Source of the DNA: an uncultured Acidobacteriota bacterium
GTDB lineage: Bacteria > Acidobacteriota > UBA6911 > RPQK01
Assembly: GCA_963744645.1 (NCBI GenBank)
Contig: CAVUUN010000014.1
Span: 450,110 to 514,109 of the forward strand
Direction of reading: 5' to 3'
Length of the DNA stretch: 64,000 nt
Position numbers and translations under genes: made by a program. Of this stretch, positions 1,423 through 63,716 are shown in pieces (positions within the stretch are counted from its first letter, which is position 1; each line of letters starts with the position of its first letter). Below the pieces are notes generated by a model, which saw only the letters and a list, made by a program, of their open reading frames with translations, had not been told where the DNA came from and made no database searches.

Positions 1423-1482
1423 CTCACCGAAAGTTTTTCTGCCCGCCCTTGAAGACCGGCCCCTAGTCAGCTGGTCAGCCGC

Positions 1483-2777: not shown

Positions 2778-2779
2778 CG

Positions 2780-3256: not shown

Positions 3257-3276
3257 GGACGCGAAAGGCGGCAAGA

Positions 3277-3407: not shown

Positions 3408-3487
3408 CATTGCCCCCTCTTGCGCCCCGCCTCCCCACATTCCCCTTGACTTGCTCTCCCCCCTGTATGACCATACACAGTTCCCGT

Positions 3488-3913
3488 ATGGACAAAGAGA
3501 AAAGGCATAAAGCAATTCTCCAAATTCTCACGCATGAAAAGGTGACCAGCCAGGAGCGGTTGCGTAAAAAGCTCGTCAAATCAGGGTTTGACGTGACTCA
3601 GGCCACTCTCTCCCGGGATTTGCGGGAACTGAACGTCATCAAGACGGCGGGCGGCGACGGATCGTATAAGTATACAGTGATGGATCGCTGGATGGGTCTG
3701 CCGATTCGCCGATGCGAGGTCAGCGGGAACCTTTTGGTGGTCTGCACCGATGCGGGAATGGCCCCCGGTGTCGCCTACAAAATCGACGAGTTGAATATCC
3801 CGGGAGTGCTCGGGACTGTTGCGGGTGAAGACACGCTCCTGGTCGTAGTGGGAGAGGATTTCGACGCGCGCGGTGTGAGGAAAGAACTATGGAACAGAGC
3901 AGCCGAACTGTGA
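3488..3913 (+). CDS. argR: arginine repressor
   Basis: MDKEKRHKAILQIL...SQERL...TQATLSRDL winged-helix N-domain plus a C-terminal oligomerisation domain. Sits upstream of argG/argH/argF. Confidence 0.85.
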   Translation: MDKEKRHKAILQILTHEKVTSQERLRKKLVKSGFDVTQATLSRDLRELNVIKTAGGDGSYKYTVMDRWMGLPIRRCEVSGNLLVVCTDAGMAPGVAYKIDELNIPGVLGTVAGEDTLLVVVGEDFDARGVRKELWNRAAEL

Positions 3914-5124: not shown

Positions 5125-5132
5125 GGCAGGCC

Positions 5133-6596: not shown

Positions 6597-6665
6597 TTCC
6601 CACCCCTTTGCCGGGCCGCCCCGTCGAAGGGAATTGAGCGTTTGGTCAGCGAAATCCCCCAAAAC
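6579..6665. repeat. degenerate MITE-like copy overlapping the argH 3' end
   Basis: GGGGAGTTTCGGGGAGAGAATATTTAATTCCC ... GGGAATTGAGCGTTTGG resembles the termini of the 30-110 element. Confidence 0.5.
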
Positions 6666-6690
6666 TCGGGACGAGAAAACCAACAAGACG

Positions 6691-7668: not shown

Positions 7669-7674
7669 TGCGCA

Positions 7675-7703
7675 TTGACAGCGGCAGCCGCAAGTGTTAC
7701 TTT
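7675..7703 (+). promoter_or_regulatory. candidate sigma70-like promoter for metK (TTGACA-17-TACTTT)
   Basis: -35 TTGACA at 7675-7680, a 17-nt spacer and a weak -10 TACTTT. The leader is too short for a SAM riboswitch. Confidence 0.3.
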
Positions 7704-7754
7704 TTTCATTTTCTTTAGCCCCAGAATGCTTCTAGGGAGCTGATAAGGAGGAGT

Positions 7755-10186
<2,432 letters not shown>

Positions 10187-19583: not shown

Positions 19584-20666
19584 CTATTTGTGACTCTCTT
19601 TCAGGATATAGGTCGGCTTGCCCTGGGACTCGTGGTACGTCCGGATGATCAATTCAGCGACGAGCCCGAACAGGATGAACTGAACACCAACGATGAAGAA
19701 GAAGATGGACAGCAGGAGCAGCGGGTTTCGATGGGCTTTTACCGCCCAAAAGAACTTCTGATACAGGGTTGCCGCCGCCAGCAGGCCGCCTCCGGCGAAA
19801 GACAGGAAGCCCAGACCGCCGAACAGGTACATTGGCTTGGTCGAGAAGCTCCCCAGGAACTTGATCGTGATCAGGTCGAGCAGCACTTTGAAGGTGCGGA
19901 AGATGCCGTACTTGGATCGCCCGAACTTCCTTGGATGGTGACGGACTGGGATCTCCACGACCCGGGCCCCCGCCCAGAAGGCGTAGATCGGGATGAACCG
20001 ATGCATCTCTCCGTAGAGGCGGATGTGCTTGACGACATCCTTCCGGTAACCTTTCAAAGTACAGCCGTAGTCGTGAAGCCGAACCCCGCTGATGCGGCTG
20101 ATCACCCAGTTGGCTATGTGCGAGGGGAAGACGCGGGTCAGCCACGGATCTTGCCGATCCTTGCGCCAGCAACTCACCACATCGTACCCTTGCGCGATGG
20201 CCTCGAGTATCCGGGGAATGTCATCCGGATCGTTCTGCAGGTCGGCATCAAGCGGAATGATGACTTCGCCGCGTGCGTGGCTGAAGCCGGCCGACATTGC
20301 CGCCGTTTGTCCGAAGTTACGCACGAACTCGAGAACGGAGACAGTGTTGTCAGACCGCTCCAGATCGCGCAGGATCCGGGTGCTCCCGTCAATGCTTCCG
20401 TCATCCACGAAAAGGATCTCGTACGGTCGCTGGAGCTGATCCAAAGCACTCTTCAGTCGCGCATACAGTGGCTGCAGATTCTCCCGCTCGTTGAACACCG
20501 GGACGACGATCGATACGTCAGGTTCGATCACGTTTGTTTGTTGGTTGGTTGGTGATGAGGTAGATGGAACGGATCCAGGGGTAACGCTTGTTTCGATTTC
20601 CGCCACGTTTGAAACCTTCAAGGAAAATACGCGCCGTAGTATATAACTTCGGTCGCCGATCAACAA
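19584..20666 (-). CDS. GT2 polyprenol-phosphate glycosyltransferase (ArnC/GtrB-like) with C-terminal TM helices
   Basis: IVVPVFNE...DDGSxDGS...DADLQNDP GT2 motifs. The ORF overlaps the upstream GT-C gene by 149 bp. An in-frame GTG at 20531 (NVIEPDVSIVVPVF) would cut the overlap to 14 bp. Confidence 0.8.
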   Translation of the reverse strand: MLIGDRSYILRRVFSLKVSNVAEIETSVTPGSVPSTSSPTNQQTNVIEPDVSIVVPVFNERENLQPLYARLKSALDQLQRPYEILFVDDGSIDGSTRILRDLERSDNTVSVLEFVRNFGQTAAMSAGFSHARGEVIIPLDADLQNDPDDIPRILEAIAQGYDVVSCWRKDRQDPWLTRVFPSHIANWVISRISGVRLHDYGCTLKGYRKDVVKHIRLYGEMHRFIPIYAFWAGARVVEIPVRHHPRKFGRSKYGIFRTFKVLLDLITIKFLGSFSTKPMYLFGGLGFLSFAGGGLLAAATLYQKFFWAVKAHRNPLLLLSIFFFIVGVQFILFGLVAELIIRTYHESQGKPTYILKESHK

Positions 20667-22143
20667 TTTGCAGGGGTTTGCCGGTTCTCTCGCTCAGCCG
20701 GGCGTAGTCTTCTTCAGCCACGAGCAGGTAAACGGGTCGAGGAGAACGGAGCTGCTTGACCGCCTCCTCCATTTCGTAGATCTCGAGAACCGGGCGGTTA
20801 AGGTAGTAGGCCAGGCTGGGCGCCGTGTACCGGAAGTAGCCCGCCTCGTACTCCCGGCCGATCCTTCGCTCGCACGCATCTCTCTCAATGCTCTCCGCCA
20901 AAGGGGCAACCGGCTTGTATTGTTCGAATTTCGGCAGGTAAACCCAGAGCCCGGCCGTGTAAAAACCGACCAGGAAGACAGCAGCCGGCAACACCTGGCG
21001 CATCGAAAGCAGCAAACCCGACGTTGCACAAAGAAGCGGGGGAAGTATCGCCAGTGCGGAGCTCCCGAAGATCTGGCGGGAGAAGAGAAAAAGCACGACC
21101 GCGGCTGCGAGGAGCAGAACACCTGATAGGGCGGCAGCCAGTCTGCCCGGTTTCTGCTCGCTCCAGTGGATCCCGAGCAGAAGAGCGGCCGCGGGATAAG
21201 CAGGCAGGATGTAGTATTCCTGCTTGTTCACCGAAAAAGAAAAGAAGATCACGTACCCGATCAGCCAGATCCACGACGGGGCGATCGCGAACCGCGCGGC
21301 TGTGGCAGGCCACGACCGGTTCCGGCTAAGCCACCAGGGGAGGGAAGCGACCGTGAACAAGGACCACGGCAGAAAATCACCGGCGAAGATTCCCAGGTAG
21401 TACAGCGGCCCTCTCGACGGTCCGTACGTCATGTAGCCGTAGCGGCCGAGGTTCTCGCGCAGAAAGAAGTCCAGGACCGGCTGCGGTCCCATCCAGATGG
21501 CGAGAGCCACGAACCAGGAAGAAGCGACGACCGCAAAACAAAGAATTCCCGGCAACCAGGGGGCGGCTCCCAGCAGCACCCAACGGCGGCGTAAGATCCC
21601 CGCAGCCAGGAGCAGGAGGACGGGTAACAATGCCACCGGTCCCTTGGCCAGGAACGCGAGCCCAAGGAAGAAGCACGCCGCAATGAAGTCCATGGTCGCC
21701 TGCCTCCCAGCCAGCGGATCAGGAACCAGACCGCCGCCAGAATGCAGAAGAGCATCAGGACATCGATGAGCAACCGCTTCGCGAGGATCTGAAACCGAAA
21801 CGTCGTGGTGAAGATCGCAGCGACAAGGAAGGCATACCGGTCGGGGATCAGAAATCGGGCTATGCCGTACAAAAACAGCACGCTCCCGTATGCGAGCAGG
21901 CCGAGCAGGAGCCTTTCCCAAAGGAGGGAAACGCCGAAGAGCTTGTAAGGTACCGCAACAATCCAATAGGAGAGCGGGGGCTTGTTCAGGCGCGGTTGGC
22001 CGTTGAAGTGGGGGACCACCCAGTCGCCCCGTTCCACCATCTCGCGCGGCGTCTGGACGTAGAATGCCTCGTTTGCATCCCAGACGGAGGAGTCCCGAAG
22101 GCTCGTGAAGAACGGAACGGCCAGCAGGAGCAGCAGCAGCCAC
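20518..22143 (-). CDS. GT-C family glycosyltransferase, ArnT/PMT-like (GT39/GT83 type)
   Basis: N-terminal motif ...RGDWVVPHFNGQPRLNKPPLSYW... and a ~13-TM profile are typical of ArnT/PMT lipid-linked sugar transferases. Confidence 0.8.
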   Translation of the reverse strand: MAAAAPAGRSVLHEPSGLLRLGCKRGILRPDAARDGGTGRLGGPPLQRPTAPEQAPALLLDCCGTLQALRRFPPLGKAPARPARIRERAVFVRHSPISDPRPVCLPCRCDLHHDVSVSDPREAVAHRCPDALLHSGGGLVPDPLAGRQATMDFIAACFFLGLAFLAKGPVALLPVLLLLAAGILRRRWVLLGAAPWLPGILCFAVVASSWFVALAIWMGPQPVLDFFLRENLGRYGYMTYGPSRGPLYYLGIFAGDFLPWSLFTVASLPWWLSRNRSWPATAARFAIAPSWIWLIGYVIFFSFSVNKQEYYILPAYPAAALLLGIHWSEQKPGRLAAALSGVLLLAAAVVLFLFSRQIFGSSALAILPPLLCATSGLLLSMRQVLPAAVFLVGFYTAGLWVYLPKFEQYKPVAPLAESIERDACERRIGREYEAGYFRYTAPSLAYYLNRPVLEIYEMEEAVKQLRSPRPVYLLVAEEDYARLSERTGKPLQIVDRRPKLYTTARIFLEGFKRGGNRNKRYPWIRSIYLITNQPTNKRDRT

Positions 22144-22177
22144 CTCGTTCTAGGTTTAAGGCTCCCCTCGGTTTGTC

Positions 22178-24674
22178 TCAGAATAGCCTCTTCTGCAATT
22201 CCTCCATGACGTCCGCGGAGCTTCGGGCGCGACTCTTGCCGGAGAGGTCCATGTCCTTGCGCTCGAGCTTGACCAGAATCTCACGGGCACGCTCGAGAAC
22301 CGGGGATGGCATCCCGGCGAGCCGAGCCACTTCGATCCCGTAACTCTTGTTTGCAACCCCGGGAAGCACTTTGTGGAAGAAGATGATCTGGCGGCCGGAT
22401 TCCCTGATCGTCACGCAGTAGTTCTTGACACAGGAATACAGGCGGTCGAGCTTGGTCAATTCCTGGTAATGAGTCGCAAAGAGCGTCCGCGCCTTCCTCT
22501 GCGTTTCGGTGACCAGGAACTCGGCCACCGACCAGGCCAGCGACAGGCCGTCAAAAGTAGCGGTGCCCCGGCCCACTTCATCGAGCAGGATCAGGCTTCG
22601 ACTGGTGGCCGTGTTGAGGATATTCGCGGTTTCAATCATCTCGACCATGAAGGTGGAACGTCCGCGGGCGAGATTATCGCTCGCGCCCACCCGCGTGTAA
22701 ACCCTGTCAACCAGCCCGATGCGCGCCTCGTCGGCCGGCACGAGAGACCCCATCTGCGCCATGATGACGATCAAGGCGTTCTGGCGCAGGTACGTACTTT
22801 TGCCCCCCATGTTCGGGCCGGTCAGGATCAGCATCTGGTCCGTGGAGGTGTTGCAGAACAGGTCGTTCGGGACAAACGGCTCACCCCCCTGCAGTTCCAC
22901 GACCGGGTGGCGCCCGCCGCGAATCTGGATCTCCTCGCTCGAATCGAGGATCGGCCGGGCATAGCGGTTCCGGCGGCCCACTTCCGCGAGCGCCAGGAGG
23001 ACGTCCACCCGGGCGAGGAAGTGCGCGACTGACTGGATGCGTGCCGCCTGGCCGCCGACCTCCCGCCGAATCTTCAGGAAGAGATCCTTTTCGATCTCCA
23101 GGATCCGTTCCTCGGCGTTCAGCACCTGGTCCTCGTACTCCTTGAGCTCCGGAGTGATGAAACGCTCGGCGCCCACCAGCGTCTGCTTCCGGATGTAATC
23201 CTCCGGCACGGCGTGCAAATGCGACTTCGTCACCTCAATGAAATAGCCGAAAACCTTGTTGTACCGGACCTTGAGGGAAGGTATCCCGGTTCGCTGCCGC
23301 TCCTTGCTCTCGAGCGAGGCAATAAATGACTTGCCCGATCCGGAGATCTTGCGGAGCCGGTCCAACTCCTCGTCGTATCCCGCGCCGGATCATCCCCCCG
23401 TCATTGAGTGTCACCGGGGCATCTTCGTCGATCGATTGCTGCAGCAGACTGACAACGTCGGTCAACAGGTCCAGGGGCGTGGACAGCAGGCTGCTTTTGC
23501 AGTCGGCCAGGTGCGTCTGCAGCTCGGGCAGGGAGGCCAGCGAGTCGCGCAGGGCCAGCAGGTCGCGTGCATTGGCCGTTTCGAGGACCACCCGGCTCAG
23601 CAGTCTCTCCACGTCATGGATCGCTTTGAGGACTTTGCCAATTCGGTCCATTCGCACCAGCGAGCCCTTCAGCTCTTCAATGGAATCCAGCCGCTCGTTG
23701 ATCACCCGCACGTCCAGACTCGGTCGCAAAAGCCAGCTGCGCAGAAGCCGGGCACCCATGCCCGTCTTCGTCGAGTCGAGGACGGACAGCAGCGTCCACT
23801 GTCGGGAACCGTCGTTTGTCTTCAGGAGCTCCAGGTTGCGGACGGTCGCCTCATCGAGCTTCATGTAGTTGGACAACTCGAACAGCCTGACGGTCAGCAC
23901 GTGGCCCAGCTGCGAGCGCTGGGTCTGCTTGACGTAGTTCATGAGGGCGCCGGCCGCGCCGATGCCTGCCTGCTGCCCGTCCAGCCCGAATCCTTCCAGC
24001 GTGGAGACCTTGAAGTGGTCCAGGAGCAACCGCTGCGAGTAGTCGAGATTGAAGCTCCAATCCGGCTGGCCGGTCAGGACCGTGTTGGCGCGGAGGTCGG
24101 CCGGGTACCAGCCTTCAAAAGCCGTGCGATCACCGTCTGCCACGACGAGCTCGCGGGGATTGAAATGTGAAAGGACCTGGAGCATCTGCTCGCGGGCCTG
24201 GTCCCCAGCGAGCTCCGTGATCCAGAATTCTCCGGTCGAAACGTCCAGGAAGGAGGCGCCAACACGCTCGCTGCTCTCCAGAATGGCGCCGATGAAGTTG
24301 TTTTCCCGGGATTCGAGGAGGGCGTCTTCGACTGCCGTTCCCGGCGTCACGATCCGGGTGATCTCGCGGCGAACCAGTCCTTTCGCCTGTTTCGGGTCCT
24401 CCACCTGTTCGCAGATGGCGACCCGGTGTCCCTTCTTGATCAGTTTGCTCAGGTAGCCGTTGACGGCGTGGTAGGGCACCCCGCACATGGGGATCGGTTT
24501 ACCGCTTCGGTCCGCGTGCCGGGAGGTGAGGGTGATCTCAAGCTCCCGACTACCCGTCACGGCATCCTCGAAGAACATCTCGTAGAAGTCGCCCAGTCGG
24601 AACAACAGCAGGACATCCGGATTCTCGCGTTTGATCTCATGGTACTGCCGCATCATCGGCGTCAGGTTGTCCAT
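22178..24674 (-). pseudogene. mutS: DNA mismatch repair protein MutS, split by a +1 frameshift into an N-terminal part (23235-24674) and a C-terminal part (22178-23365)
   Basis: The N-terminal ORF carries mismatch-binding and connector domains. The C-terminal ORF carries the clamp and ATPase (GPNMGGKST). The frames diverge after DGGMIR, where GYDEELDRL continues in the +1 frame, next to a GGG run at ~23378-23380 (coding strand). Confidence 0.85.
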
Positions 24675-33380: not shown

Positions 33381-34663
33381 TTGAAGCTCACACTGGATCC
33401 GGCAACTTCGCGCGCTTGCGCCCCAGCCACCAAAGGACTGGTTGCAATCGCCGGGGTTTATTTCATTTCCCTCTTCCTGCAGCTGCCGATATCGGACGCC
33501 CTGCTGTCCGGGATCCCGCATTGGAGGATCGGCAAGGGTGCGGTTGCCCCACCCATGGTACTCTCCGGCGATTCCCCCCATTACCTGGTCCTTGTCAACA
33601 GCATCATCGAGGATGGGGATCTTGATCTGGCCAACAATTACAGCCAGGCCGCGGCTGGCGGCTGGCAAGCAGGGGCGCGTTTCCGGGGAGTGGCCCTGGA
33701 CCACCATACCGAGGTCGATAGCGAGGGAAGGGAACGGTCCCTGCATTCGATTTTCCTTCCATTGCTCCTGTCGCTCATCGCCTGGCCATTTTCCGGCACT
33801 CGATGGGTTGAGCCCGTCTGTATCTGCCTGACGATGGGGGCGACCGTCCTCGCTCTCTGGTTGTTCGCGAGAAGAAGCGGGAAGGCTTTTGGCTGGGTGG
33901 TCGTACTTGCCGTCGCGACGCCTCTCTGGTGTTACTCCAGGGACATCTGGACCGAGCCATGGCTGACCGCCGCCTGGATTGGTCTTCTTTTCGTGCAGAG
34001 TCTTCCGGTCCTCTTCGCCGTGGCACTTGCAGGGACACTGATCAAGTACAACTTCGTCCTGGTCCCGCTCAGCATGGCAGTCGTTTTCTGGCTGAGACGC
34101 GACCGGCGCCGGGCTTCGTGCTTGCCGGAGCGGGTATCCTCGGAGTATTGATCGCCGTGGCCGCGGTTCAGTACTTGTTCCGCGACGTGGACCATTTCAA
34201 CCTCTTTCACCTCGGCGGTCATTACCACGGCGCCGACGCCACGCTGCGTCAGAGAATCGTGCCCTTGAAATTTCTTCAACCGACGGGGCTGGTTGGCATG
34301 CTTTTTGACCCGCAAGCAGGTCTCCTGCCGTTCTTCCCGTTTCTGGCCTGGGGCCTCTGGCAAATCCGAAAGGGCGGCTATCTGTTCGTTCCCGTCATTG
34401 TCTTCTTCCTTGTTCTTGGCGCCTACCCGGGATGGACTGGAGGAGCCGGATTTTCGTCGCGGTACCTGGTGCCGGTCCTTCCGGCCCTGGTCATCGCCGT
34501 CGCTGATGCAAAACCCCGCAGCTACTTCTTCGGGCTGGCATTGCTTTACGGTGCATTCTGGGGTGCGCTCGCCGGCATAGGGCCGGCGTATGTCTACGAA
34601 CGCACGCCTGTCCAGATCACTGCCGCTATCCTCAGGCGGCTGTCTGCGCTGGCTGGTATCTGA
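33381..34663 (+). pseudogene. polytopic membrane protein (possible GT-C-fold glycosyltransferase or glycan polymerase-like), interrupted by a frameshift or split into two genes
   Basis: The TM-rich ORF 33381-34151 ends in RRDRRRAS... The TM-rich sequence resumes in another frame (ORF 33929-34663, ...PAPGFVLAGAGILGVLIAVA...). The switch lies at ~34090-34115. Confidence 0.45.
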
Positions 34664-44173: not shown

Positions 44174-45935
44174 ATGAAACTGAAAGTCTCGCTCGCCCAG
44201 ATCAATCCGACGACTGGGGATCTGCAAGGCAACAGCCGCAAGATCATTGCAGGCATCGAAAAGGCGCGCCGGGAGGGAGCACACCTGGTGGTTTTCCCCG
44301 AGATGTGTCTGACCGGCTACTGTCTGGACGAAAAACTCCTGATCAACCTCGGCTTTCTGCGGGCGAACCGCCGATACTTGCTCAACGAGATTGCACCTGC
44401 GTGCAAGGACATCGCGGCAGTCGTCGGGTTTCTGGAATTCGACGAGTCGCGCCGGGGACCGGACAGTCGTGTCATCCGGCACAACGCCGCCGCGGTCATC
44501 CAGGACGGCCGGCTCCTCACCGTGGTCAAGAAGCGATTGCTGCCGTCGTATCGGTATTTCGAGGATAAGCGGTATTTCGAACCGGGTCGTGAGACCGAGC
44601 CGGTACCCATCCGGGGTGCAGACGGCGCTGTTTCCGTGGGAGTCCTGATCTGTGAGGACTTGTGGGACGACGGTTACGAGCTGAAACCGACCGAGATTTA
44701 CAGCCAGAAGGGGGCCGAGCTTCCTCGTCTGTATCAATGCGAGCCCGTTTGTCGCCAGCACGCCGGGCCGCGAGGACGGGAAGAGATTCCGACGCCGCGA
44801 CCAGATTCGCCTGAAAATCGAGCGTCACGGTTTGCCGATCGCCTATGTCAATACTGTGGGGATCGGCGACAACGGAAAGAACATTATTCCGTACGATGGC
44901 GCGAGCGTTGTGTACGATGCCGACGGTCGGCTGGTCTGCGCCCTTAAAGCATTCGAAGAGGACCAGCAGACGGTCACGCTGGAACAGGGACGGGCAGCGG
45001 AATGCCCGGAACCCTGCAGGGAGCGGGAAGAAGAGATCTATCTCGCCCTGGCCATGGCTGTCCGGGACTACTACCAGAAGGTCGGAATCTTCAAGGGGGT
45101 GTTGGAAGCTGTTTCGGGCGGGATCGATTCGGCCCTCGGAACGGCAATCGCTCACCAGGCGATGGGCCCCGAACTTGTCACCCTCTACAATCTTCCCTCG
45201 AAGTTTAACTCTTCGACGACCCAGGCGCTGGCGCGCCAGCTCGCTGAGAATTTCGGCCTGACGTACCACGTGATTCCAATCCAGGCGATGGTCGATCGGG
45301 TCGTCGAAGATTTTGAGCGAGATCTGCACCCGGTCAGGGATCCTGTGACGATTGAGAACCTGCAGTCGAGGATTCGGGGATTGATCATGATGGCGGAATC
45401 CAACGACCGGCAGGCTTTGCTCCTGACCAACGGAAACGAAACCGAGATAGCGCTGGGTTACGCGACCCTTTACGGCGACATGGTGGGCGGGCTCTCGGTT
45501 ATCGGAGACCTGCCGAAGACCGACGTTTACCGCTTGGCGCGGTATGTCAACCGCCGTTGGGGTAGGCCGGTCATCCCGGAAGCGATCTTCACGATTCCAG
45601 CCTCTGCCGAGCTGCGCGAGGACCAGGTGGACCCGTTCGACTACGAGATCGTGGCGCCGCTGGTCAACGAACTGGCGGAGACGGGCTGGGGACCCGAAGA
45701 GTTCGTCGAACAGTTCCGAACCCGCTCCCTTTCCGCAGAAAAGTACTCGACCGGGACCGGCTCGATCTACGACAGGTACACCGTCGATGAGTTCCGAGAC
45801 CTGGCTGTGCGGCTCTACCGGAGCCTGAACAACTCCGTGTACAAAAGGCTGCAGGGCGCGCCGATCATTGCGGTCTCCGACCGGGCATTCGGCTTCGATC
45901 TGAGGGAGACGATTATTAACGGGTGGAAACCCTGA
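44174..45935 (+). pseudogene. nadE: glutamine-dependent NAD+ synthetase (CN-hydrolase plus NAD synthetase domains), split by a -1 frameshift
   Basis: ORF 44174-44947 holds the nitrilase domain up to ...YSQKGAEL. ORF 44832-45935 holds ...LPIAYVN... and the SGGIDSA PP-loop. The second frame reads FLVCINASPF from ~44721, so one base is missing near gagcTTcctc. Confidence 0.85.
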
Positions 45936-46593: not shown

Positions 46594-48119
<1,526 letters not shown>

Positions 48120-48345
48120 CGGGAAACCGAAAGAAAACAACGTTCGATAACAATCGGGTCTTGCAGGCTCGCCTCTGTCTGGTTATCCAAGGTCGGATAA
48201 AAAACACCCGGCGCCTTTTTTTTCGAAGAAGAAGGGCGCCGGGTTCGATCTTGACTGGTCTTTGACAATCTGGAAGAGAGAAAACAAAAGGGCAAGAGAA
48301 ATGCCACAAGGCAGGCCTGGGGATTTTGGGCGACTGAAAAACCCG

Positions 48346-51308
<2,963 letters not shown>

Positions 51309-51385
51309 GGATTTTTCAGTGGCTCAAAAACCAAGGCCACCTGTGGCACGCCTTTAGCCCCGAGTTTCTTCTTCCAGATGTTACG

Positions 51386-51464
51386 ATTGCGGATTGCGGA
51401 TTTGGGAGTGCGGATTAAAAAGCCGGTCTTTCAATCCGCAATCCCAAATCCGCAATCCGCAATC
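51386..51464. repeat. inverted repeat of GCGGATT heptamers in the 23S-5S spacer
   Basis: gattgcggattgcggatttgggagtgcggatt ... aatccgcaatcccaaatccgcaatccgcaatc, ~31-bp arms. Confidence 0.8.
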
Positions 51465-51473
51465 TTAAAGGAT

Positions 51474-51590
51474 TTCCGGCGGTCCTGGCGGAGGGGCCAC
51501 ACCCGTTCCCTTTCCGAACACGGAAGTTAAGCCCTCCAGCGCCGATGATACTGCATGGGAAGCCATGTGGGAACGTAGGTCACCGCCGGA
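51474..51590 (+). rRNA. rrf: 5S ribosomal RNA
   Basis: CCGGCGGTCCTGGCGGAGGGGCCACACCCGTTCCC...GGGAACGTAGGTCACCGCCGG is a typical 5S sequence. Confidence 0.9.
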
Positions 51591-51601
51591 ATATAAACGA
51601 A

Positions 51602-52943: not shown

Positions 52944-55900
52944 ATGACGAAACGCGGGTGGCGACTGGCAGGAGTGGCAGTGGCGCTTCTCCTGCTGCTT
53001 CCAGTCCTGGCCTTTTTTCTATTACATACGGCACCCGCGAGGCGTTATCTGCTCCAGAAGGCGCAAGCGTATCTTCTGGACCAGGGTGTTCGCCTGGAGG
53101 CAGCAGGGATTGATTACAGCCTGGCCGGGGGCACCCTCCGCCTGGACACCGTCCGTCTTGCGTCTGTAACCGGGCAGGACCTCCCTCCGTTCCTCGAAGC
53201 CCGCAGCGCGACCTTTGACATCGGTATCAGCAGTTACCTGAAGGGATTTCTACACCTTCAGGACGCCCGGTTTGAAGACCTGAAGCTCCGCATTGTTATC
53301 GACGAACACGGGCGCAGCAATCTGCCTGCCTTCACCCGCAGCGAGGCGAAACCGGAGGAAAGAGCTCCGCAATTCCTCATCGAGCACCTGGAAGCATCAC
53401 CTCTCTACGTTCTATACGACGATCGGCCCAACCAGCTCCGCGTCGAATTGCCCGTGGCCCGGCTCCGAGTCGACGGACGAATGCCTTTCAATCATCGCGT
53501 CCTCTTCGGTGCGGAACGGCCTGTTTCCGTTCGGTACGAGGGCACGAGCATGATGCTCGATGTCCTGAACCTGACGGCCGACCTGCCTGGCGACCTGAGC
53601 GGCCTGGGGCTGCGCGAGCTTCAGTTGCGCAGCGGAGGGTCGCAGGTCAGGGTCACCGGCCGGCTCGAGCAGTGGAATGACCCACGGATGAATTTTGAGG
53701 CGCGAGCCAGCCTCGCCCTCGAAGAGCTGGCTCGGGCGGTGAATTTGAACGAGCCGTGCGCGGCACTGCCGTGATTACGGCAACACTGAGCGGGACCGTC
53801 GAGGACCTGATCGTACAGGGCGATATTGCCGGGCACGGGCTTCGCTACCGCCAGTTCACGGATTTGTCGTTTGAGACTGCTGTTGACTGGCAGCGACAGC
53901 GCGAGTCGGTCCGCCTGGACTCCATCAAACTCGATTCTCCGGACTTTTCCGCCCGTGGTTCCAGTCTGCTGGTTCTGTCTGGTGAATCAGGCAGCTCGGC
54001 GACGCTCGATATAGTCAAGGCGGACCTGGCGGCGCTTTCCCGCAGGCTGGACTTGCCGATTGTCGTCGAGAGCCGGGCATCCGGCCAAATGGCCGCCACA
54101 TGGCCGGGGCTCCAGTTCGGTCTGGCTAGTGGACAGGCGGATTTCCGGCTTTCGCAGGGCCGGGAACGCGCAGAGAGGGACCGGCTTCCGGTCGCAGGTT
54201 CCCTTCAACTCCGGCTCCAGGACTCGAAGGTCACCGCCTCGATTCACCACATTCAGATTCCCGGGCTGGTCCTCGACGGGAACGCCAATGTCGATTCCTT
54301 TGAGGATTTGACGCGGTTGGCCGACGGCCGTCTGTCCGGGCAGGTTCGGGCGGAAATCACCGGCCTGGAAACCCTCTATCCGAATCTGCTGAGCTTCCTC
54401 GGGAACGATGCCGACCCGACTCTCAACCGTATCCGACCAGCCGGAACAGGCCGCCTTTCCGCGATACTCACCGGGTCGCCGTCCACGCCCGTCATTTCCG
54501 CCTCCCTGGAAGTTCCGTCCGCAACGGTAGGGAATCTGCACGGAATCCAACTGGCTGCGGAGGCTCACATTACTCCGGCGCAGCTCGACGTGCCGTCGCT
54601 TTCGCTCCAGTGGAACGGGCAGTCAGTTCAAGCAGACGGAACGATTGGTCCTTTCCGGCCGGGAGTCGTCGCTCGATATGCGGGTGAAGGCCAAAAACCT
54701 TGATATCCAGAAGGCTCTCGGGGCACTCGGTCAGCCTGTTCCGGTTTCGGGTGAGGCCACACTGGAGGCGCAAGCGACCGGCACGATTGGCGCTCCGCAC
54801 GTCCGTGCTCAGCTCCAAATGTCTTCGCTCGAGGCTTACGACGAGCCGTTCGGGGCCCTGAAGGCAGATCTGTCTCTCGATGGCCGCGACGGCACGGATC
54901 GATAGACTGGTCCTCGACAAGTCATCCGGGCAACCGGGGTCTTCCGGCAGCTTGGAGCTGGCCGGCTCGTACAACCTGGATTCCAGTTCCTATGAAATTA
55001 CGGCGACAGGTGATCGACTTCGGATCGAGGGGCTGACTCTTCCCGGGCAATCTCCCCTGGCGGGTGTCCTCGAGTTCCAGGCCAACGGGAGCGGGACTCT
55101 CTCGAACCCGGTGCTCGACTTTAACCTAGCCGCTGAGGAAGTGAGTTTCGAGGGCCAGCAGCTCAAAGCCGCACAAGCAGACGGCCAGCTGAGAGACCGG
55201 ATTGTGCGCTTCAACCTGGCTGCTCCGTCCTTCAGCCTCCGTGCGAACGGGCTAGTAGGAATAGACCGACCGTATGCGGCTGAGATTGAAGCGAATATCG
55301 CCGAACTGGACCTTGCTGCCCTGCCTCCCTCGCTCGCTCGGAGTTCCCATCCAGGGACAATTGAGTGCACGAGGGAAGGCGACGGGAGAACTGGCCATGC
55401 CAAGACAGGCCGAGGTTCAAGCGACGGTAACCGATCTCCTCCTGAAGAGCGGCGGAAGGGTGATAGAGAACGAGGGTCCGGTTGAGGTTGCGTATTCAGG
55501 TGAGAGGTTGCAGATTCGGACTGCCGCCCTGACCTCGGGTTCTTCGTTCTTGACGCTCTCCGGGCAGATGCCGCGTGGGACCGCAAGCCGCGCCGGGTTT
55601 GGTGGAGGTCCACGGCAGTGTCGACCTCGCTGAGCTGCTGGCTGGGAGTCTGACCGCCCCGTACTCGGCCGGCGGCAAATTCACGCTCGATGGTTCGGTG
55701 GCCGGCTCCTTCGAGAACCTGGTTCCAACGCTCGCCGTTTCACTGAGAACGGTCGCTTCGCAGCGCCGGAGCTCGTCGAGCCTGTTCAGGACGTCAGCTT
55801 GCAGGCGACGGTGCGAGACGGTCGAATCGATCTGACTCGACTCGCAGGACGTCTGGGGCCGGGAACCCTGGAGGGTCAGGGCGAAGTTCCACTGGGGATT

Positions 55901-57560
55901 ATTCCGGGTATCCCGGAGCAGATTCAGCGAAGAGAAGGACCTGCCCGGCTGACGTTGCGGGCCGCGGATTTTTCGGTTCGGTCGCTTGCCGCTGCTCCTC
56001 AGGACGTTTCGGGAACCCTTTCCCTTCGAGCCGACCTGGAAGCGGCCGATTCACGCCCCGAGTCCTTAACTGGCGCCGTGACCTTTGACCGGCTGGATTT
56101 CCGCGTCGCCGGTGTAGACCTGCGCCAGGACCGGCCGGCCACCCTGCGAGTTGGGGGAGGGAAGCTCCGAGTTGAGCACTTTGCGTTACTCGGCCCGGAA
56201 ACCCGCATCCAGGCGGCCGGAACGGCAGGCTTCACGGGCGACAGCGAGTTGTCCCTGCGGATGAACGGCAGGATGGATCTCGCCCTTCTTGCCGTATTCG
56301 CACAGGATCTGGAGGCCTCCGGTGAAGCGCAGTTCCGGGTGGAAGCATCCGGTACAGCCACCAATCCTCGGCTCGCCGGCTTTGTTGAGTTGCAGGGAGG
56401 TCAGGTTGCGCTTGAGAGTCCGGCGATCCAGCTGAACGATCTCCGGGCGCGGCTGGATCTGGAAGGGGATGGCCTGGTCATTCGCGAGCTCAACGCGAAC
56501 ATGAATGGTGGGTCGCTCACGGCGTCCGGGTCGGCGATCGTGGAGAACGGTGTCGTCAAACCGAGTCTCGACCTCGTCGGCCGCGGCGTATTCCTTGACT
56601 TCCCGGAAGGGCTCCAAACGGTTTCCGACGCGGATGTCAACGTGCGTTCCGCGGGCGACTTCGTCACTGTCGGAGGTCGCGTCCAGATTCTGCAGGGCTC
56701 CTATACCGACCAGCTCAATCTCGAGGAGAGTCTCCTGGGACTGGTCGGATCGGACGACGTGGAAACCGTGTCGGAGCGGGATCCGCTGCTCGCCAGGGTT
56801 CGTTTTAACGTCGAGGTGCAGAGCCGGGAACCGATAGTGATGGACAACAACCTGGCGAAGGTAGGGGCGGACCTCGACATGCGCCTGGTCGGGAATTACT
56901 ACCAGCCAGGCTTACTGGGGCGGTTGAGGTTGGATGAGGGAGGCGAGCTGTACCTGCGGGAGCGGACCTACTACGTGGAACGCGGTGTCATCTCGTTCAA
57001 CAATCCGGCCGAGATTGAGCCGAGCTTGGACCTGAGCGCCCGGACCCAGGTTAAAGACCTCGACATCACGCTTCGGATCAGCGGGACTGCCCCTAACGTG
57101 GAGACGAGTCTGACGTCCGACCCGCCTATGCCCGAAACGGATCTCGCCTCTCTGCTGGTGACAGGCCGGACGCTCGAGAAAGCGCGTGGCGAAGCGGGAA
57201 CCGTTCTCCGTGAGCAGACTCTTTCGCTTCTGACAGGCACCGTCGGTGGGAGGGTGGAAGAAGAACTGAAGCACATCACGGGGCTCTCAGAGGTGCGAAT
57301 CGAACCGAACCTCATCGCGCCCGAATCCGATCCGACAGCTCGGCTCACGATTGGTCAGGACCTGACCGCCAAGCTGGGGCTGATCTACTCGATGAATCTG
57401 GCGGACAGCGGCGACCGGATCTACATCGGTGAGTACGACGTGACCAGGCGGTTCATCGGAAGGGTCGTCCATGAGACGGATTCCCAAGACTCGCTGGAGG
57501 AAGGCTCCAAGTCCCGCTTCGAGGTCCGGCACGACCTTCGACTGGGAGGGAGCGGAGACG
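52944..57560 (+). pseudogene. tamB: TamB/AsmA-family (DUF490) translocation-and-assembly-module protein, fragmented by at least 6 frameshifts
   Basis: Consecutive overlapping ORFs 52944-53774, 53756-54703, 54645-54905, 54880-55485, 55274-55633, 55575-55835 and 55799-57560 each read as TamB-like beta-rich sequence. An N-terminal signal anchor and the C-terminal DUF490 region (...YLRERTYYVERGVISFNNP...) are present. Confidence 0.7.
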
Positions 57561-57569
57561 CTGGCGAAC

Positions 57570-59805
57570 GGGCGGCGCCGCGTCCCGAAGAACGGAGACG
57601 CATCACGGCGCTTCGTTTTGAGGGACAGTCTCCATTTACCGAGAAGCAGCTGACGGACGAATTTGACCTCGATGTCGGCGACAAGTATGAATTCTTCAAA
57701 GTGCGTCAAGGCTTGGAAGCGCTCAAATCGTTCCTCGTGGAGCGCGACTACCTGGAAGCAACGGTCAGGCTGAATCGTGAAAACACCAGCCCCGAATCGG
57801 TCGCCCTCACCGTTCGGGTCGATTCCGGTCCGATGGTTCGTTTCCGTTACGAGGGTTTTCAAACCGGGAGGAGAGATCGAGAGCCGTGTGCGGGAATCCT
57901 GGACGAAAGGGGTGTTCGACGAGCTCCGGCTGGAGATGGCCGGCGAAGTCGTTCGCTCCGCCTTGTTGCTCCAGGGTTACATGGAGGCCAAGATCGAGCA
58001 GGAGACCCGGCTCGAACAGAATGAGAAGGAGGTCGTATTTCGAGCAGAATTGGGCCCCCGGTATGAGGACGTCACGGTCGAGTTCGAAGGTGCATCCCCA
58101 CTGCTTAAGGAACGCCTGGAAGAGGAATTGGGCAGGGATAAGCTCGCCGCCCGGGTTCACACGTCGCTGCAGCAAGTCGACGATCAGATCAAGAGGCTGT
58201 ACAGGAGCGAGGGTTACCTTCAGGCGGAGGTCGGCGCCCCGGTTCCGAGACTTGACCCGTCCACGCGCACAGCCGTCCTGGTGTTGCCAATCAAGGAAGG
58301 GCCTCGGGCCGAACTGACGCAGATCGAGTTTGATGGGAATTCGGTCCACGGCGACGAAGATCTGGCCCGCCATTCGCAGCTCACTGTCGGCCAGGTCTTT
58401 CGTCCGGCGGATCGCGATGCGGCGGTTGTGCGTCTGCGCCTCCTCTATGCCGCAGAAGGGTACAACGATACGGTTATCACGCCGGAGACGCAGTCAGATC
58501 CGGAAACCGGGAAGGTGCGCCTTGCTTTCAGGATCGAGGAGAATCGGAGAGAAGTGGTTCGGGCCATTGAGGTGAAAGGGCAACGGGAGAACGAGCGAAC
58601 GTTTTGTCACGAGCCTGCTGGACCTGGCGGTCGGGGACCCTTTCACCCCGGAGAAGGCAGGCCGTTCTCGCCGCGCGCTGTACAACACGGGCGCCTTTTC
58701 TCTTGCGGATCTGGAAACCGAGGAGATCGGGCCGGCGGGCGCGTCGCCGGGCGAAAAACCTCTGCGCGTGACAGTGCGGGTGCGGGAGGTCAGGCCGTTT
58801 CGGCTGCAGTACGGCGGCTTCTACGACACTGAACGCGGGCTGGGCGCGATTGCTGATCTGACGAACCGGAACACGCTCGGGAACGCGGCCGTCCTGGGGT
58901 TGAGGGCACGCTATGACGACACATTCCGGGAAGGTCGCCTGTACTTTGGACAGCCACAACTTGGCGGGCTGCCGTTCAACAGCAATGCCGTCGCCTTCGT
59001 GAGCCGCGAAATCCGAGTGAATGCCGGTTTCGTAAACGACCGGGTGGGGTTCTCGGTCCAACAGGAGAAGACTCTCAGAAACCAGTTCGTCCTGGCTTGG
59101 GGATACCGGTTCGAGCGTGATCACACGTACGAGCCTGTTCCAGACCCGTTCTTTGATATCACCTTGAAGGTCGCTCCTTTGACAGCGACCTTCAGTCGCG
59201 ACGTCAGGGATGATATTCTCGATGCCTCCCGGGGTTCCTTCACCTCGCACAACCTCGAGTTCGCGCCGAAGTTGCTCGGCTCGGATCTCCGCTTTATCCG
59301 CTACTTTGGTCAGTACTTCCGCTATATTCCGTTAGAGCGAACCGGAAGAGATCCCGTGGAGCGGCGGTTTGCGCAAAAGCCGGTTGGTGTATGCGGGAGG
59401 AGTCCGACTCGGTCTGGCACATGGTTTTGACGACCAGAGGCTGGTGCCAAGCGAGAGGTTCTACGCGGGTGGGGGCACCTCGATCCGGGGATTCGAACAG
59501 GACGAGGTCGGGCCGCGAAATATCATCGGTGATCCAGGCGGGGGGGCCAGTCGTTGTTCATCATGAACCACGAATTGCGGTTTCCTCTTTATCAGATCTT
59601 TGACGGTGTCGGTTTCTTTGACCTGGGCAACGTCTACCGAGGATGCCGGGACTTGGACTTGTTTGATGTCCGCTCTTCGGCCGGTTTCGGTTTGAGCATA
59701 CGGACGCCGTATTTTGTTCTGCGCGGGGATGTGGGCTTCAACCTGTTCCCGAGGGAAGGGGAAAAGCGGAGCGTGTTCTTCTTTAGCATCGGGCAGGCTT
59801 TCTAG
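57570..59805 (+). pseudogene. tamA: Omp85-family outer-membrane protein (TamA/BamA-like: POTRA domains plus 16-strand barrel), fragmented by at least 3 frameshifts
   Basis: POTRA-like repeats in ORFs 55799-58024 (tail) and 57777-58832. Barrel segments in 58768-59430 and 59554-59805, with the canonical C-terminal ...FFFSIGQAF. No intact start or signal peptide was found. Confidence 0.7.
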
Positions 59806-59848
59806 GAATGCGGAATGGCGAATGCGGAATGCGGAATGCGAAAGCGGA
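59805..59848. repeat. heptamer tandem array GGAATGC x~6 directly after the tamA-like stop
   Basis: ggaatgc ggaatgg cgaatgc ggaatgc ggaatgc gaaagc read directly. Same unit family as 1230-1270. Confidence 0.8.
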
Positions 59849-59867
59849 AAGGAGGGGGTCGTCGAGC

Positions 59868-59994
59868 CGAACCGCAAACGGAGCGTTTTGTGCGAAGTGC
59901 GCGGATTGTATCCGGAAGCAACCAACTCCGAGCGTGGTGTCGCTCACTGATACAATCCGCGCACTTCGCACAAAACGCTGCGTTTGCGGTTCTG
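59868..59994. repeat. ~125-bp inverted repeat (REP-like), family B copy 2
   Basis: GAACCGCAAACGGAGCGTTTTGTGCGAAGTGCGCGGATTGTATC ... GATACAATCCGCGCACTTCGCACAAAACGCTGCGTTTGCGGTTC. Shares cores with 1302-1422. Confidence 0.8.
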
Positions 59995-60128
59995 TACCGC
60001 TCAGCCAGCGGCTGCATAGTGCTCCGGAGGTCGATCAGGATGTCCGACTTGGAAGTCGGACCTACGCTGTCACGCTCTGCAATTCGATTGCCTTACGCAA
60101 ACCGGTCCTGCGAGGTTATCCTTAGCGG

Positions 60129-61134
60129 GTGGCACGGGTGACACTCGGAGCAGGCAGGCAGGAAGCCAAGAAGCAGGCGGCGCAGAAGTACCCGATCTCG
60201 GTCATCATCCCGGCTCACAATGCCGCCGCCCATCTTGGCCGGTGTCTGGAAGCCGTTCGGGCCAACGATTTGACCTGCGTGGAGATCATCGTCGTGGACG
60301 ACGCTTCGTCGGATTCCACCCCGTCATTGCACAGGGATCGGGTTGTCGGCTCATCAGGCTCGATCAGCAGGTGGGCCCCGCCGGGGCGCGAAATCAAGGC
60401 GCCCGGCGAGGCGCGCCATCCGTATCTCCTGTTTCTTGACTCCGACGTGATCCTGCCGCCCGGCAGCATTGCCTTCATCCGAGAGACTCTCGAACTCTAC
60501 AGTCACAGGCCGGACGTCTCGGGGGTCCTTGGCCAGTATTCAGAGGGCGGTGCCGTCCGGAGGTTTCCTTACCAATTTCAAGAACCTGACGACCTGTTAC
60601 CTCTACAACATCACCGACACTCAAAGCCCCTATCTGCACACACCGATATTCTGTATCCGTAAAGAGGTGCTGGAATCTGCGGGTGGTTTCGATCCCAGGC
60701 TCTGGAGGGCGGAGGACTTCCGGCTTGGCGTGGTCTTAGGCTCGAGAGGCTACCGGTTCATTATCGACAGGCGGATCAAAGGGCTCCACTTGAAGGAGTA
60801 TGGTTTTGCAGGCGCCTTGAAGGAGGACTGGCTCCGGATCAAGGACCTCCAGTCGGTGAGGCTGGGACCGGGCGAGCGGGCCTTTGCTCTGCGGGCCCAT
60901 CGCTGGACCCGGTTGGTATCGCTGTCGCTTCCCGGCGCGACCTGTTGGCCTTGGCCCTCGCCCTTGCCGGACCTCGGACGGCGTTTGTTTTCCTGGCCGT
61001 TCTACTCTCAGCCCTCTTCCTGGCGCTCAATGCGCGTTTCCTGCTTTATTGCAGGCGGCAGAGAGGGCTCCTTTTCGCAATCCAGTCGGCTGCTTTTCTT
61101 TTTCTTGAAATGCTGTGGGCCGAAGTTGCCCTGA
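60129..61134 (+). pseudogene. GT2-family glycosyltransferase, fragmented by at least 2 frameshifts
   Basis: ISVIIPAHNAA...VDDASSD in ORF 60129-60662. IRLDQQVGPAGARNQGARRA in alternate-frame ORF 60242-60439. The C-terminal half lies in 60469-61134. Confidence 0.6.
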
Positions 61135-61159
61135 TGGCGGGATGCTGCGTCGACGGCGA

Positions 61160-62243
61160 TCAGAAAAACGAATTCCGGAAAATCCGAAGCGCCCGGGACG
61201 GGTTGAACAGGGTGTTGACGCTCATCGCGCATTCATAGGTGCACTGGCAGCCGAGTTTCTGTTGATATTGAACAGCCGAGGCCGCCTCACTGGATGACCA
61301 GAGCGCCGCAAGGTCGCAGCCGTAGTCCCGAACATTCCCCATTTTGCGGTCCAGGGTCTCGCACAGATAGACGTCGCCCGTTTCGCTTAGAACTCCGATC
61401 AACTGGCCGGCGTAGCAGGGCGAGATTCTCCGGTCGGCGCCGGCCGCTTCTTCGATCAGCCGGTAGGTCTGCTGCCTCCTTGGCCACAACGAGCCGGTCG
61501 CTCCATCGCCGGGTGCGCAGGTGGTCCTTGCGATAGATCACCACTTTTCGGGCGAATTCCCGATAGACCTGCATGTCGACATTCTTGAGCGTGGGATCAA
61601 GCGGGTTCCCGCGGACCAGGGTAATGGTGACTGCGTCGGGCTGCAGTTCCTCTTCGACGTAGCGATAGAATTCGCTCAACTGATCCTGGTTCGCGGCCGA
61701 GACGGTCAGGGCGACGCCTACCGAGAGGTTCGGGAACCGGGGCTTAAGCTTCTTGAGCCCATCGAGAGCTTCGATCGCGTGCGAAAAGCTGCGCGGGTTC
61801 TGCCGGATGGCGTTGTGAATCTCGGGTGGACCGTCCAGCGAGACGCCCGTTGCCACTCGTGCAGTTTTGACCCTTTTCAGCACCGCCTCGGCGCCGGACA
61901 CTGTCTTCTCGATGCTGAATCCGTTCGATGGGATCTGAATGTTCCGGACTCCGGAGTTCCTTTCGAACAGATGTGCAATTTCAGCGAGATCAGGCCGCAG
62001 ATAAGGCTCTCCGCCGGTCAGCGAGACGGACAGGAGATTCGGGAGGCTGCGGGTGACGCGGTCGATTTCGTCCGGCGTCAGCTCGTTTTTCTTCTTGTTG
62101 AGCTGCTCCCAATAGAAGCAGTGCGTACACAGGAGGTTGCAGCGGCCGGTGACAAAGAAGATCAGGCTTACCGGGAGGCCTCTTTTGTGGACCAGCCGGC
62201 CGGCAATCTGAAGATCCCTGAGCCCGGAAGACATCCGGACCAT
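61160..62243 (-). pseudogene. radical SAM/SPASM-domain protein (peptide- or cofactor-maturase-like), split by a frameshift
   Basis: CNLLCTHC cluster and SLTGGEPYLRPD in ORF 61287-62243. A Cys-rich SPASM/twitch-like C-terminus (CYAGQLIGVLSETGDVYLCE...GCQCTYEC) sits in alternate-frame ORF 61160-61489. Confidence 0.65.
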
Positions 62244-62446
62244 GGTACCACGCCGGTTCTGCTGCGTCGTGCACGGCGCCCGAACACGCCATCTGACACC
62301 GTCGTTCCTGTCTTGCGGCGATTCGGCGGTGTCAACATGACCACTCTTGCAGGGCGGCTGACACCACCAAAAGCTCCAAACTTGGCCCTGGTTGAAACTT
62401 TTCGCAGGCGGACTCCGTTCTAATTAGCGAAGAAGGAGGACAACCG

Positions 62447-63014
62447 ATGAAGGTGCAACGGATTCTGTCCATGCTGGTGTTACTCGCTGCTTTCGGACTT
62501 CAGGCTCAGGCGCAGGCTCAGAGCGGCTTCAAAGCAGTGGTTGCATGTGCGGGTCGACAGTGCGAAGAAGGGAGGCGAAAACGTCAAGGTGAACGTTCCG
62601 CTTTCCCTGGCGGAAACGGTTCTCGGGATGGTGAAGGAGAAGAACGTTTCATCGGGAAAGATCAAGATCGAAGACAAGAACTTCACGGCTCAGGATCTGC
62701 GGAAGATCTGGAACGCCGTCAAGGCTGAAGGGAATGCGGAGTTCGTTACAGTCCAGACCCAGGAGGTCAATCTCCGAGTCGCGCTCGAGGGCGCGTACCT
62801 GGTGGTGAGAACCGACGAAACGTCCCCGAGCCAGGTGCAGATTACCCTGCCGACGAAGGTCGTGGATGCGTTGCTTTCAGGCAATGAGAACGAATTGGAC
62901 CTTCTGGCCGCCATCCGGGCGCTTCAGGAGACCGATAGCAAGGAAATCGTCTCCATCAAGGACAAAGAGACGTCGGTCAAAGTCTGGATCGACGACAGGA
63001 ATATCTCCGAGTAG
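62447..63014 (+). CDS. hypothetical secreted protein (frame switches between the signal peptide and the mature part)
   Basis: Signal peptide MKVQRILSMLVLLAAFGLQAQA in frame 1 (62447-). A lower-GC, Lys/Glu-rich body in frame 2 (62541-63014). Divergent from the radical SAM/SPASM gene. Confidence 0.4.
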
Positions 63015-63089: not shown

Positions 63090-63716
63090 ATGTTAGCCAA
63101 GATTGGAATGGTCATCCTGGTGATTTTCGTACAGTTCGTGTTCCTGATCGGTCTGGTGCTCTACCAAACGGGAATCATTATTGTTGACGTGCAGGAAAAG
63201 GGCCCATCCGGGTACCACCTGTACATTCCCGTCCCCGTTGCCCTGTTGCACGCCGGGCTGCTGATCGTCCCCAAGGAGGAGTTGCGCGAGGTCAGGCAGG
63301 AGATCGGCCAACGCAAAGCCCTGATCATGGGTGTCTGCGAGCAGATCAATCAATGCCCCGACGGGTCGTACCTGGAGTACCGGAGTCAGCATGAGCAGGT
63401 GACGGTTAAGAAAGAGGACGGCGATCTGGTCGTCTTCGTGGATTCCGGTCAGGAGAAGGTCCGCGTCGAAGTGCCCGGTCTTTGCGGTTCGCAACCTCAT
63501 GGCCCAGGTCACTGCCTCTGCACTGTAAGGGCAGCGCTTTTCAGCGGAGTAAGCGGGTTCACGTGGTACGCAGGCGGCCATCATCAGGTCTTGATGCCGG
63601 ACAGCATTAGCAACCCTGCCGCCGAAAAGAGGATGTTTGGCCCCCAGGCCGCAAGGATGGGGGCCAGAAGCCCGCTGGCTCCCATCACCCCGAAAACCCC
63701 AAACGCTCCCCAGTAG
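63090..63716 (+). CDS. hypothetical membrane-anchored protein
   Basis: N-terminal TM helix (MVILVIFVQFVFLIGLVLY). The low-complexity tail overlaps the downstream minus-strand gene, so the true end is uncertain. Confidence 0.35.
   Translation: MLAKIGMVILVIFVQFVFLIGLVLYQTGIIIVDVQEKGPSGYHLYIPVPVALLHAGLLIVPKEELREVRQEIGQRKALIMGVCEQINQCPDGSYLEYRSQHEQVTVKKEDGDLVVFVDSGQEKVRVEVPGLCGSQPHGPGHCLCTVRAALFSGVSGFTWYAGGHHQVLMPDSISNPAAEKRMFGPQAARMGARSPLAPITPKTPNAPQ

Follow-up and report, generated by a model that had tools for sequence, protein, structure and literature searches.

Single-base frame breaks clustered in an acidobacterial outer-membrane locus are probably long-read consensus errors that conceal a TamB-TamA fusion gene

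We analysed a 64-kb stretch of DNA (64,000 nucleotides, hereafter the window) from contig CAVUUN010000014.1 of an uncultured Acidobacteriota bacterium, in which a row of genes downstream of the rRNA operon appears broken into many fragments that resemble TamB, Omp85 proteins, family 2 glycosyltransferases (GT2) and radical SAM/SPASM proteins. Comparison with a nearly identical genome indicates that the frame switches in this row are very probably consensus errors of a long-read metagenome assembly and not the marks of decaying genes, and, as judged from the aligned sequences, the breakage is not real as a biological feature. The 'tamB' and 'tamA' frames, which the original prediction, made from the letters of the window, had treated as two genes, form on the same evidence one fused gene of ~2,285 amino acids (aa), including a 276-aa open reading frame (ORF) at its N-terminus. 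With the errors undone, the true locus would be an intact operon-like row comprising the TamB-TamA fusion, a GT2 gene, a radical SAM/SPASM gene and genes of two small proteins.

The comparison genome, a relative 99.6% identical to the window (ENA assembly ERZ25039545, contig_27112), was found by a homology search with a 741-aa TamB fragment of the window, whose 90% cluster comprises four window fragments and a single 2009-aa protein of the relative (P0063). Four overlapping pieces of contig_27112 were joined into a 74-kb composite that spans the whole window, and frame breaks were placed by whole-window nucleotide alignment to the relative and by tblastn with the relative's intact proteins, two approaches that concur on the break positions. 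A gene map based on base composition at third codon positions (GC3) was dropped as a means of frameshift calling, as it was too noisy alone, and the comparison with the relative was used instead. Background divergence between the two genomes is 0.1-0.5%, and synonymous divergence is ~0.01.

With respect to the relative, the window carries 23 private single-base frame breaks in genes, one of which (27356) is only a possible break. Eighteen lie within 54,647-63,474, i.e. in an 8.8-kb patch, where the density of breaks is 2.0/kb vs 0.09/kb outside it, so that 78% of the events are found in 14% of the window (binomial P for at least 18 of 23 events in 13.8% of the window = 5e-12). Between 52,944 and 63,014, where the original prediction had counted at least 13 frame switches, there are 17, hence that count was an understatement. 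Outside the patch only 4-5 private breaks were found, and none in 1-21.6 kb. The affected genes are listed below, with 1-nt insertions marked (+) and 1-nt deletions marked (-) after the break position.

20521..24674, minus strand: contains the gene of a PMT_2 membrane glycosyltransferase, break 21690(-); intact in the relative, 507 aa
20521..24674, minus strand: contains mutS, break 23385(+); intact in the relative, 831 aa
27356(+): possible break in the gene of an 80-aa hypothetical protein
33555..34660, plus strand: 369-aa hypothetical protein, break 34114(-); intact in the relative
44174..45935, plus strand: nadE, glutamine-dependent NAD synthetase, break 44720(+); intact in the relative, 586 aa
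54647..63474, no strand: error patch of 8.8 kb with 18 coding and 7 intergenic 1-nt indels vs the relative
53771..59805, plus strand: remainder of the fused gene (tamBA) after the 276-aa ORF, nine private 1-nt indels, at 54647(+), 54887(+), 55335(+), 55573(+), 55745(-), 57870(+), 58574(+), 59334(+) and 59542(-); intact in the relative, 2009 aa
60138..61206, plus strand: GT2 glycosyltransferase, six 1-nt indels, at 60321(-), 60402(+), 60549(+), 60942(-), 61142(-) and 61149(-), placed to within a few bases as the gene lies in a divergent tract; intact in the relative, 356 aa
61160..62243, minus strand: radical SAM/SPASM protein, one break, 61471(+); intact in the relative, 360 aa
62447..63014, plus strand: secreted 188-aa protein, one break, 62521(+); intact in the relative
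63090..63528, plus strand: 145-aa protein, break 63474(+); intact in the relative

The break in the gene of the 145-aa protein, just beyond the range 52944-63014 covered by the original prediction, gives rise to a false 208-aa ORF reaching 63716. The fragments carry the Pfam domains DUF748/AsmA, TamB (DUF490), POTRA, Omp85, GT2, radical SAM and SPASM, and the family resemblances that had been read from the translations were thereby found by Pfam as well. The rise in frameshift density that had been reported downstream of the rRNA operon is also real, although it begins only 3 kb after the 5S gene, and the interval 51.6-54.6 kb is clean.

The relative shows the reverse pattern: it is intact in the genes broken in the window and broken where the window is intact. 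Its private +1 insertions lie at window-equivalent positions 586, 5886, 6082 and 8166, and leave argH in three pieces, metK in two and a CofH-like radical SAM gene in two.

contig_27112, L006 5023-6103, 10001-11466 and 12625-13789: error patch of the relative, over the CofH-like gene, argH and metK
140..8918, plus strand: control region of the window, intact
140-1228: CofH-like radical SAM gene, a 362-codon open frame, intact in the window
5133-6596: argH, intact in the window
7755-8918: metK, intact in the window

None of the 23 breaks is common to the window and the relative. Both metK and nadE are normally essential, and two genomes that differ by ~1% at synonymous sites, each of them with essential genes broken at separate clusters, therefore speak for consensus error and not for evolution.

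The locus has also been identified in an unbroken form in a more distant genome, a MEGAHIT-assembled, short-read Acidobacteriota metagenome-assembled genome (MAG) that serves as a GTDB species representative (L009, 66% aa identity). There, the 276-aa ORF and P0063 together have a collinear counterpart in one 2288-aa ORF, all in a single frame, and this ORF is followed by GT2, radical SAM, 185-aa and 158-aa genes, all of them intact and syntenic, which indicates that the locus is conserved and selected. This and the other genomes designated L009-L017 were found by an alignment-based search of genome contigs, and P0063 as the sole query gave none of them. Independent short-read copies of the affected genes were sought via cluster membership, which returned only the window's contig and one relative in the collection; in cluster look-ups the fragment proteins had no source besides the window's own contig, and the patch proteins looked up led to no Logan contigs of the organism. 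Elsewhere in the window, a 1192-bp Logan contig (L004, ERR10755943) is 100% identical to positions 36695-37886, and its protein recurs in a second run, ERR15459711. Other datasets thus contain the same strain and could be used to check the frameshift sites.

The architecture of the fused gene can be read from the relative and from these genomes.

52944-59805 in the window, 9174-16030 in the relative (L002) and 2117-8983 in L009: TamB-TamA fusion gene
52944..53774, plus strand: 276-aa ORF that supplies the signal-anchor and DUF748/AsmA-like part at the N-terminus; 100% identity with the relative

Matches of the 276-aa ORF remain below the curated Pfam cut-offs (47.5 vs 50 bits for DUF748 and 20.4 vs 29.8 bits for AsmA). 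P0063 matches PF04357 (DUF490) with 120 bits and comprises three POTRA stretches and an Omp85 domain (PF01103) at residues 1699-2009. The fused chain opens with the N-terminal anchor and DUF748, continues with the TamB body and DUF490, and ends with three POTRA and the Omp85 barrel. A single frame runs through TamB, POTRA and Omp85 in L001 (a JGI contig, 41% identity), L002, L007, L008, L009, L011, L013 and L014; the exception is L012, in which the Omp85 part lies in a different frame from TamB and POTRA. Even in the window, the ORF at 55799-58024 holds both TamB and POTRA, so the frame is continuous across the DUF490-POTRA junction. The fusion is kept from 66% down to ~27% identity in Acidobacteriota MAGs and in some MAGs labelled otherwise, including short-read ones. 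In L009 it is accompanied by the downstream GT2, radical SAM/SPASM and two small proteins, and the fusion also occurs alone in MAGs of Thermoanaerobaculia and Vicinamibacteria.

The spectrum of the changes is equally uniform. All 23 events are exactly 1 nt in size (15 insertions and 8 deletions), and undoing the single-base indels gives full-length ORFs with no internal stop and no nonsense mutation in the repaired genes, in agreement with the earlier suggestion of recent small indels rather than old decay. The repaired proteins are 97-100% identical to those of the relative (98.4% for the tamBA remainder), except for GT2 (88.8%), which lies in the divergent tract. No site of the 23 falls in a run of 4 or more identical bases, contrary to the expectation that the switches would be found in homopolymers; the longest run in the unbroken sequence at these sites is 3 nt, and runs of 4 or more make up 4.4% of the patch. 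Only seven of the 15 insertions duplicate a base next to them. At the break sites, enrichment was seen for no 3-mer or 4-mer (the best 4-mer has P = 0.006 among 108 tests), and no methylation-like motif turned up there when one was looked for. The patch spans five unrelated genes on both strands, and its spacers contain 7 further 1-nt indels in ~0.66 kb; on this pattern, the errors follow position and not genes. Uncorrected indels of a long-read assembly, the explanation preferred at the outset, have thus gained strong comparative support from the reciprocal private breaks, from the repair and from the intact locus of L009.

Indel errors that fragment genes have been described for long-read (Nanopore) assemblies and MAGs (PMC9262707; 10.1101/2021.08.23.457338; Kastor, PMC12007338), and, as in the window, they are 1-nt changes that generate overlapping homologous ORFs. 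Such errors are more severe where coverage is low, and polishing or a reference sequence allows them to be corrected. However, the classic account stresses homopolymers, which is at odds with the sites described here, and the errors of the window are patchy and adjoin two tracts that vary between strains.

24.8-27.0 kb: strain-variable tract 1, 5-10% divergence, largely non-coding or hypothetical, with many multi-base indels
58150..62600: strain-variable tract 2, 5-10% nucleotide divergence vs 0.1-0.5% in the background

As many as 21 of the 23 errors lie at most 3.6 kb from one of the two tracts, a grouping that was made after seeing the data: the main patch contains tract 2, while 21690, 23385 and 27356 (three of the five scattered errors) flank tract 1. 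The differences in tract 2 are mostly in third codon positions, with a ratio of non-synonymous to synonymous changes (pN/pS) of 0.05-0.2, and by its sequence the tract looks like a real alternative allele and not like noise. It was probably imported by recombination, and the two tracts together are probably recombination imports or strain-variable islands.

Proximately, the errors may then stem from too little effective depth where strains vary. Within the patch, which is about as long as one long read, strains differ by 5-10% over a 4.4-kb tract. Plausibly, a stretch of read length was assembled there from reads of a minor strain or of mixed strains, which would have led to a low effective polishing depth; the consensus in 54.6-63.5 kb was probably built from few or mixed-strain reads. 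The platform may have been Nanopore of the R10 type, with Flye assembly and Medaka polishing. The name of the relative's contig fits the Flye pattern, and a MAG with an MFD name (L012) is named in the same style. In the Microflora Danica long-read study, Nanopore reads alone were assembled with Flye and polished once with Medaka (PMC12313526), and the ERZ/ERR accessions may be part of that study. It has been reported that R10.4 resolves homopolymers and that bins with <40-fold coverage still need polishing (PMC9262707); the non-homopolymer sites could accordingly be explained by errors of R10-type or low-depth data, if the platform is as supposed. In L007 (ERZ25039469, an accession near that of the relative) there is a frame switch inside TamB, and in L008 (ERZ25039502) there is none, its two called genes lying in a single frame with an unaligned gap between them.

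On the other hand, the rRNA operon, whose neighbourhood had been proposed as the source of collapsed or poorly polished sequence, finds no support as the cause of the errors: its 3-kb flank is clean, and the patch of the relative (window-equivalent 0.6-8.2 kb) lies 38 kb from the operon.

46595..51591, plus strand: rRNA operon, with 16S at 46,595-48,115, 23S at 48,346-51,309 and 5S at 51,475-51,591

Between the window and the relative, the operon differs by one mismatch and by a T8/T9 length difference at 48216 in the internal transcribed spacer, the sole indel.

Several observations weigh against consensus error as the explanation. In the low-divergence part of tamBA, pN/pS is 0.46 (7 synonymous and 9 non-synonymous differences), which could mean relaxed constraint, whereas intact genes nearby have 0.10 (Fisher P = 0.03); in the divergent part of tamBA it is 0.07, a value that reflects only the history before the recombination. 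The ratio of 0.46 would be explained equally well by substitution errors in the same low-quality patch or by a generally loose constraint on the repetitive body of TamB. Besides, part of the 1-nt indels in the spacers may be real divergence. Finally, a break at ~53.76 kb, not counted among the 23, occurs in the two long-read assemblies alike, which a random error would hardly explain, and if it is real, tamBA could be already inactive in this species and further indels in it would be tolerated.

53754..53773, plus strand: shared frame break of the 1-nt deletion type, between the codons of ...NLNEP and those of ...RGTAV; not in a homopolymer

The DNA of the window and of the relative is identical at 53,740-53,780 (~9984-10004 of L002). 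The 276-aa ORF ends in a TGA (53,772-53,774) that overlaps the GTG start codon of the ORF after it (GTGA stop/start), so that the break parts the first 276 aa from the remaining 2009 aa. The protein of L009 matches one frame up to ...LNEP and the -1 frame from GTAV... on, which places the deletion at ~53,756-53,758; in L009 and L011, both of them short-read relatives, one frame continues across the site, and a TamB homologue (P0007) aligns straight across. A random error common to two assemblies is very unlikely, therefore the break should be either a real, lineage-specific split or a systematic error of basecalling or polishing. If the split is real, the 2009-aa part would lack an obvious signal sequence. 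Programmed -1 slippage at this position was considered and rejected, as no X XXY YYZ heptamer is present.

Among the alternatives to consensus error, the one that survives best, although we regard it as very unlikely, is a real and recent pseudogenisation of an outer-membrane biogenesis and glycosylation locus, possibly sped by the loss of mutS, which the original prediction had named as its second possibility. It could draw on the +1 insertion at 23385 in mutS, on the fact that all fragments are still recognisable (so that any decay must be very recent), on the pN/pS raised to 0.46 in low-divergence tamBA, and on the break at 53.76 kb common with the relative, which could mean that tamBA is already dispensable. 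Loss of mismatch repair leads to transition-dominated substitutions and homopolymer indels throughout the genome, and natural bacterial indels are deletion-biased and varied in size. Mutator-driven accumulation of pseudogenes, in mismatch-repair-deficient lineages and host-restricted pathogens, likewise yields many frameshifted, still recognisable genes, but it is genome-wide, centred on homopolymers, rich in transitions and biased to deletions, none of which is seen here. The transition/transversion count between the window and the relative is 126/93 (1.35) and thus not transition-dominated, no indel is in a run of 4 or more, 18 of the 23 events are clustered in 14% of the window, and all are 1 nt in size, two-thirds of them insertions, with no accompanying nonsense mutations. 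In mutS, too, the lesion is a single +1 insertion like the others, nadE is hit as well, and the relative shows like breaks in metK and argH. Moreover, at a synonymous difference of only ~1%, the time for 8.8 kb to gather 18 independent hits has been short. The mutator explanation fits the comparison poorly.

Marginally less probable still is a mixture, in which tamBA was inactivated in the common ancestor of the two strains by the shared deletion at ~53.76 kb and some of the nine later indels in tamBA are real neutral mutations, while those in GT2, radical SAM/SPASM, the small genes, nadE and mutS are errors. The shared break occurs on identical DNA in assemblies of two strains and in a context that is not error-prone, and the ORF that follows it, of 2009 aa, has no signal sequence evident by eye. 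Against this, the relative has no further break in the 6 kb in which the window has nine, the indels of tamBA match in spectrum and density those of the neighbouring genes and spacers, and short-read assemblies show a conserved, unbroken fusion gene at identities of 66% and ~27%. Programmed recoding at the frame switches, by ribosomal frameshifting or by transcriptional slippage, could appeal only to each fragment staying in an open frame and has next to no chance of being correct, given that the sites have neither a slippery nor a common motif, that both L009 and the 99.6%-identical relative lack them, and that we know of no precedent for eighteen recoding sites in 8.8 kb over five genes.

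With consensus error as the preferred reading of the breaks, the fused gene beneath them can be compared with known systems. The proteobacterial translocation and assembly module (TAM), as described in PMC4494059 and PMC13119328, has the same parts, i.e. an AsmA-like N-terminus and a C-terminal DUF490 in TamB, and three POTRA and an Omp85 barrel in TamA. However, in Proteobacteria TamA and TamB are separate proteins, whereas here they form one polypeptide in the order TamB-then-Omp85. In Deinococcus radiodurans, PMC5382914 describes a very long TamB annotated as DR_1462, DR_1461 and DR_1460 and treated as one homologue, which resembles the fragmented annotation in the window; that organism lacks tamA, whereas the TamB of the window is fused to Omp85 and is far more densely fragmented. 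BamA-TamB operons have been reported in Acidobacteria by Heinz et al. 2015, in a text that never uses 'fusion' or 'fused', and no description of a TamB-TamA fusion was found in the papers searched. A 2026 preprint (PMC13119328) reports that DUF490 of E. coli forms a stable hybrid barrel with TamA, which makes a covalent link between TamB and TamA mechanistically plausible. On balance, we lean towards the view that the fusion is a natural single-chain TAM, running from an inner-membrane anchor through the TamB bridge and DUF490 to three POTRA and the Omp85 barrel, and that in this species it is perhaps split or recoded after residue 276.

The window also contains several repeats. Tandem arrays of heptamers, such as CGGAATG, CTGCGCA (x20), TTCTGAG and GGAATGC, are found in its intergenic spacers, and two of them lie between the 23S and 5S genes (51385-51416 and 51432-51464). 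Compared with the relative, five of the arrays differ in length, and the difference is not in every case a whole number of heptamers. The 16S-23S spacer (48116-48345) is 230 bp long, and no tRNA gene was found in the rRNA spacer or anywhere in the 64-kb window. Between the stop of tamBA and the start of the GT2 gene there is a hairpin that is absent from the relative and has its sole copy in the window here, and which looks like a small palindromic insertion or one resembling a miniature inverted-repeat transposable element (MITE).

1229-1269, 11047-11185, 14078-14121, 14147-14187, 17263-17296, 51385-51416, 51432-51464 and 59805-59849: heptamer arrays
59805..59849: tandem repeat of the heptamer GGAATGC, x6.6, directly after the tamBA stop; 19 bp longer than that of the relative
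59872..59991: near-perfect hairpin of 120 bp, stem ~45 bp, -93.5 kcal/mol, z = -13

As outlined above, the ~20 fragments annotated as coding sequences in the deposited record should not be taken as pseudogenes, and the advice to hold gene calls downstream of 52.9 kb as provisional was sound. When two long-read assemblies are nearly identical yet each has its own clusters of 1-nt breaks outside homopolymers, this may serve as a diagnostic of consensus error; the errors here lie near strain-variable tracts. For the biology of the organism, the fragments provide no evidence for genome reduction, for a mutator phenotype or for a lost outer-membrane biogenesis function. A covalent link between TamB and TamA, if true, would offer a naturally occurring test of the hybrid-barrel model of lipid transport.

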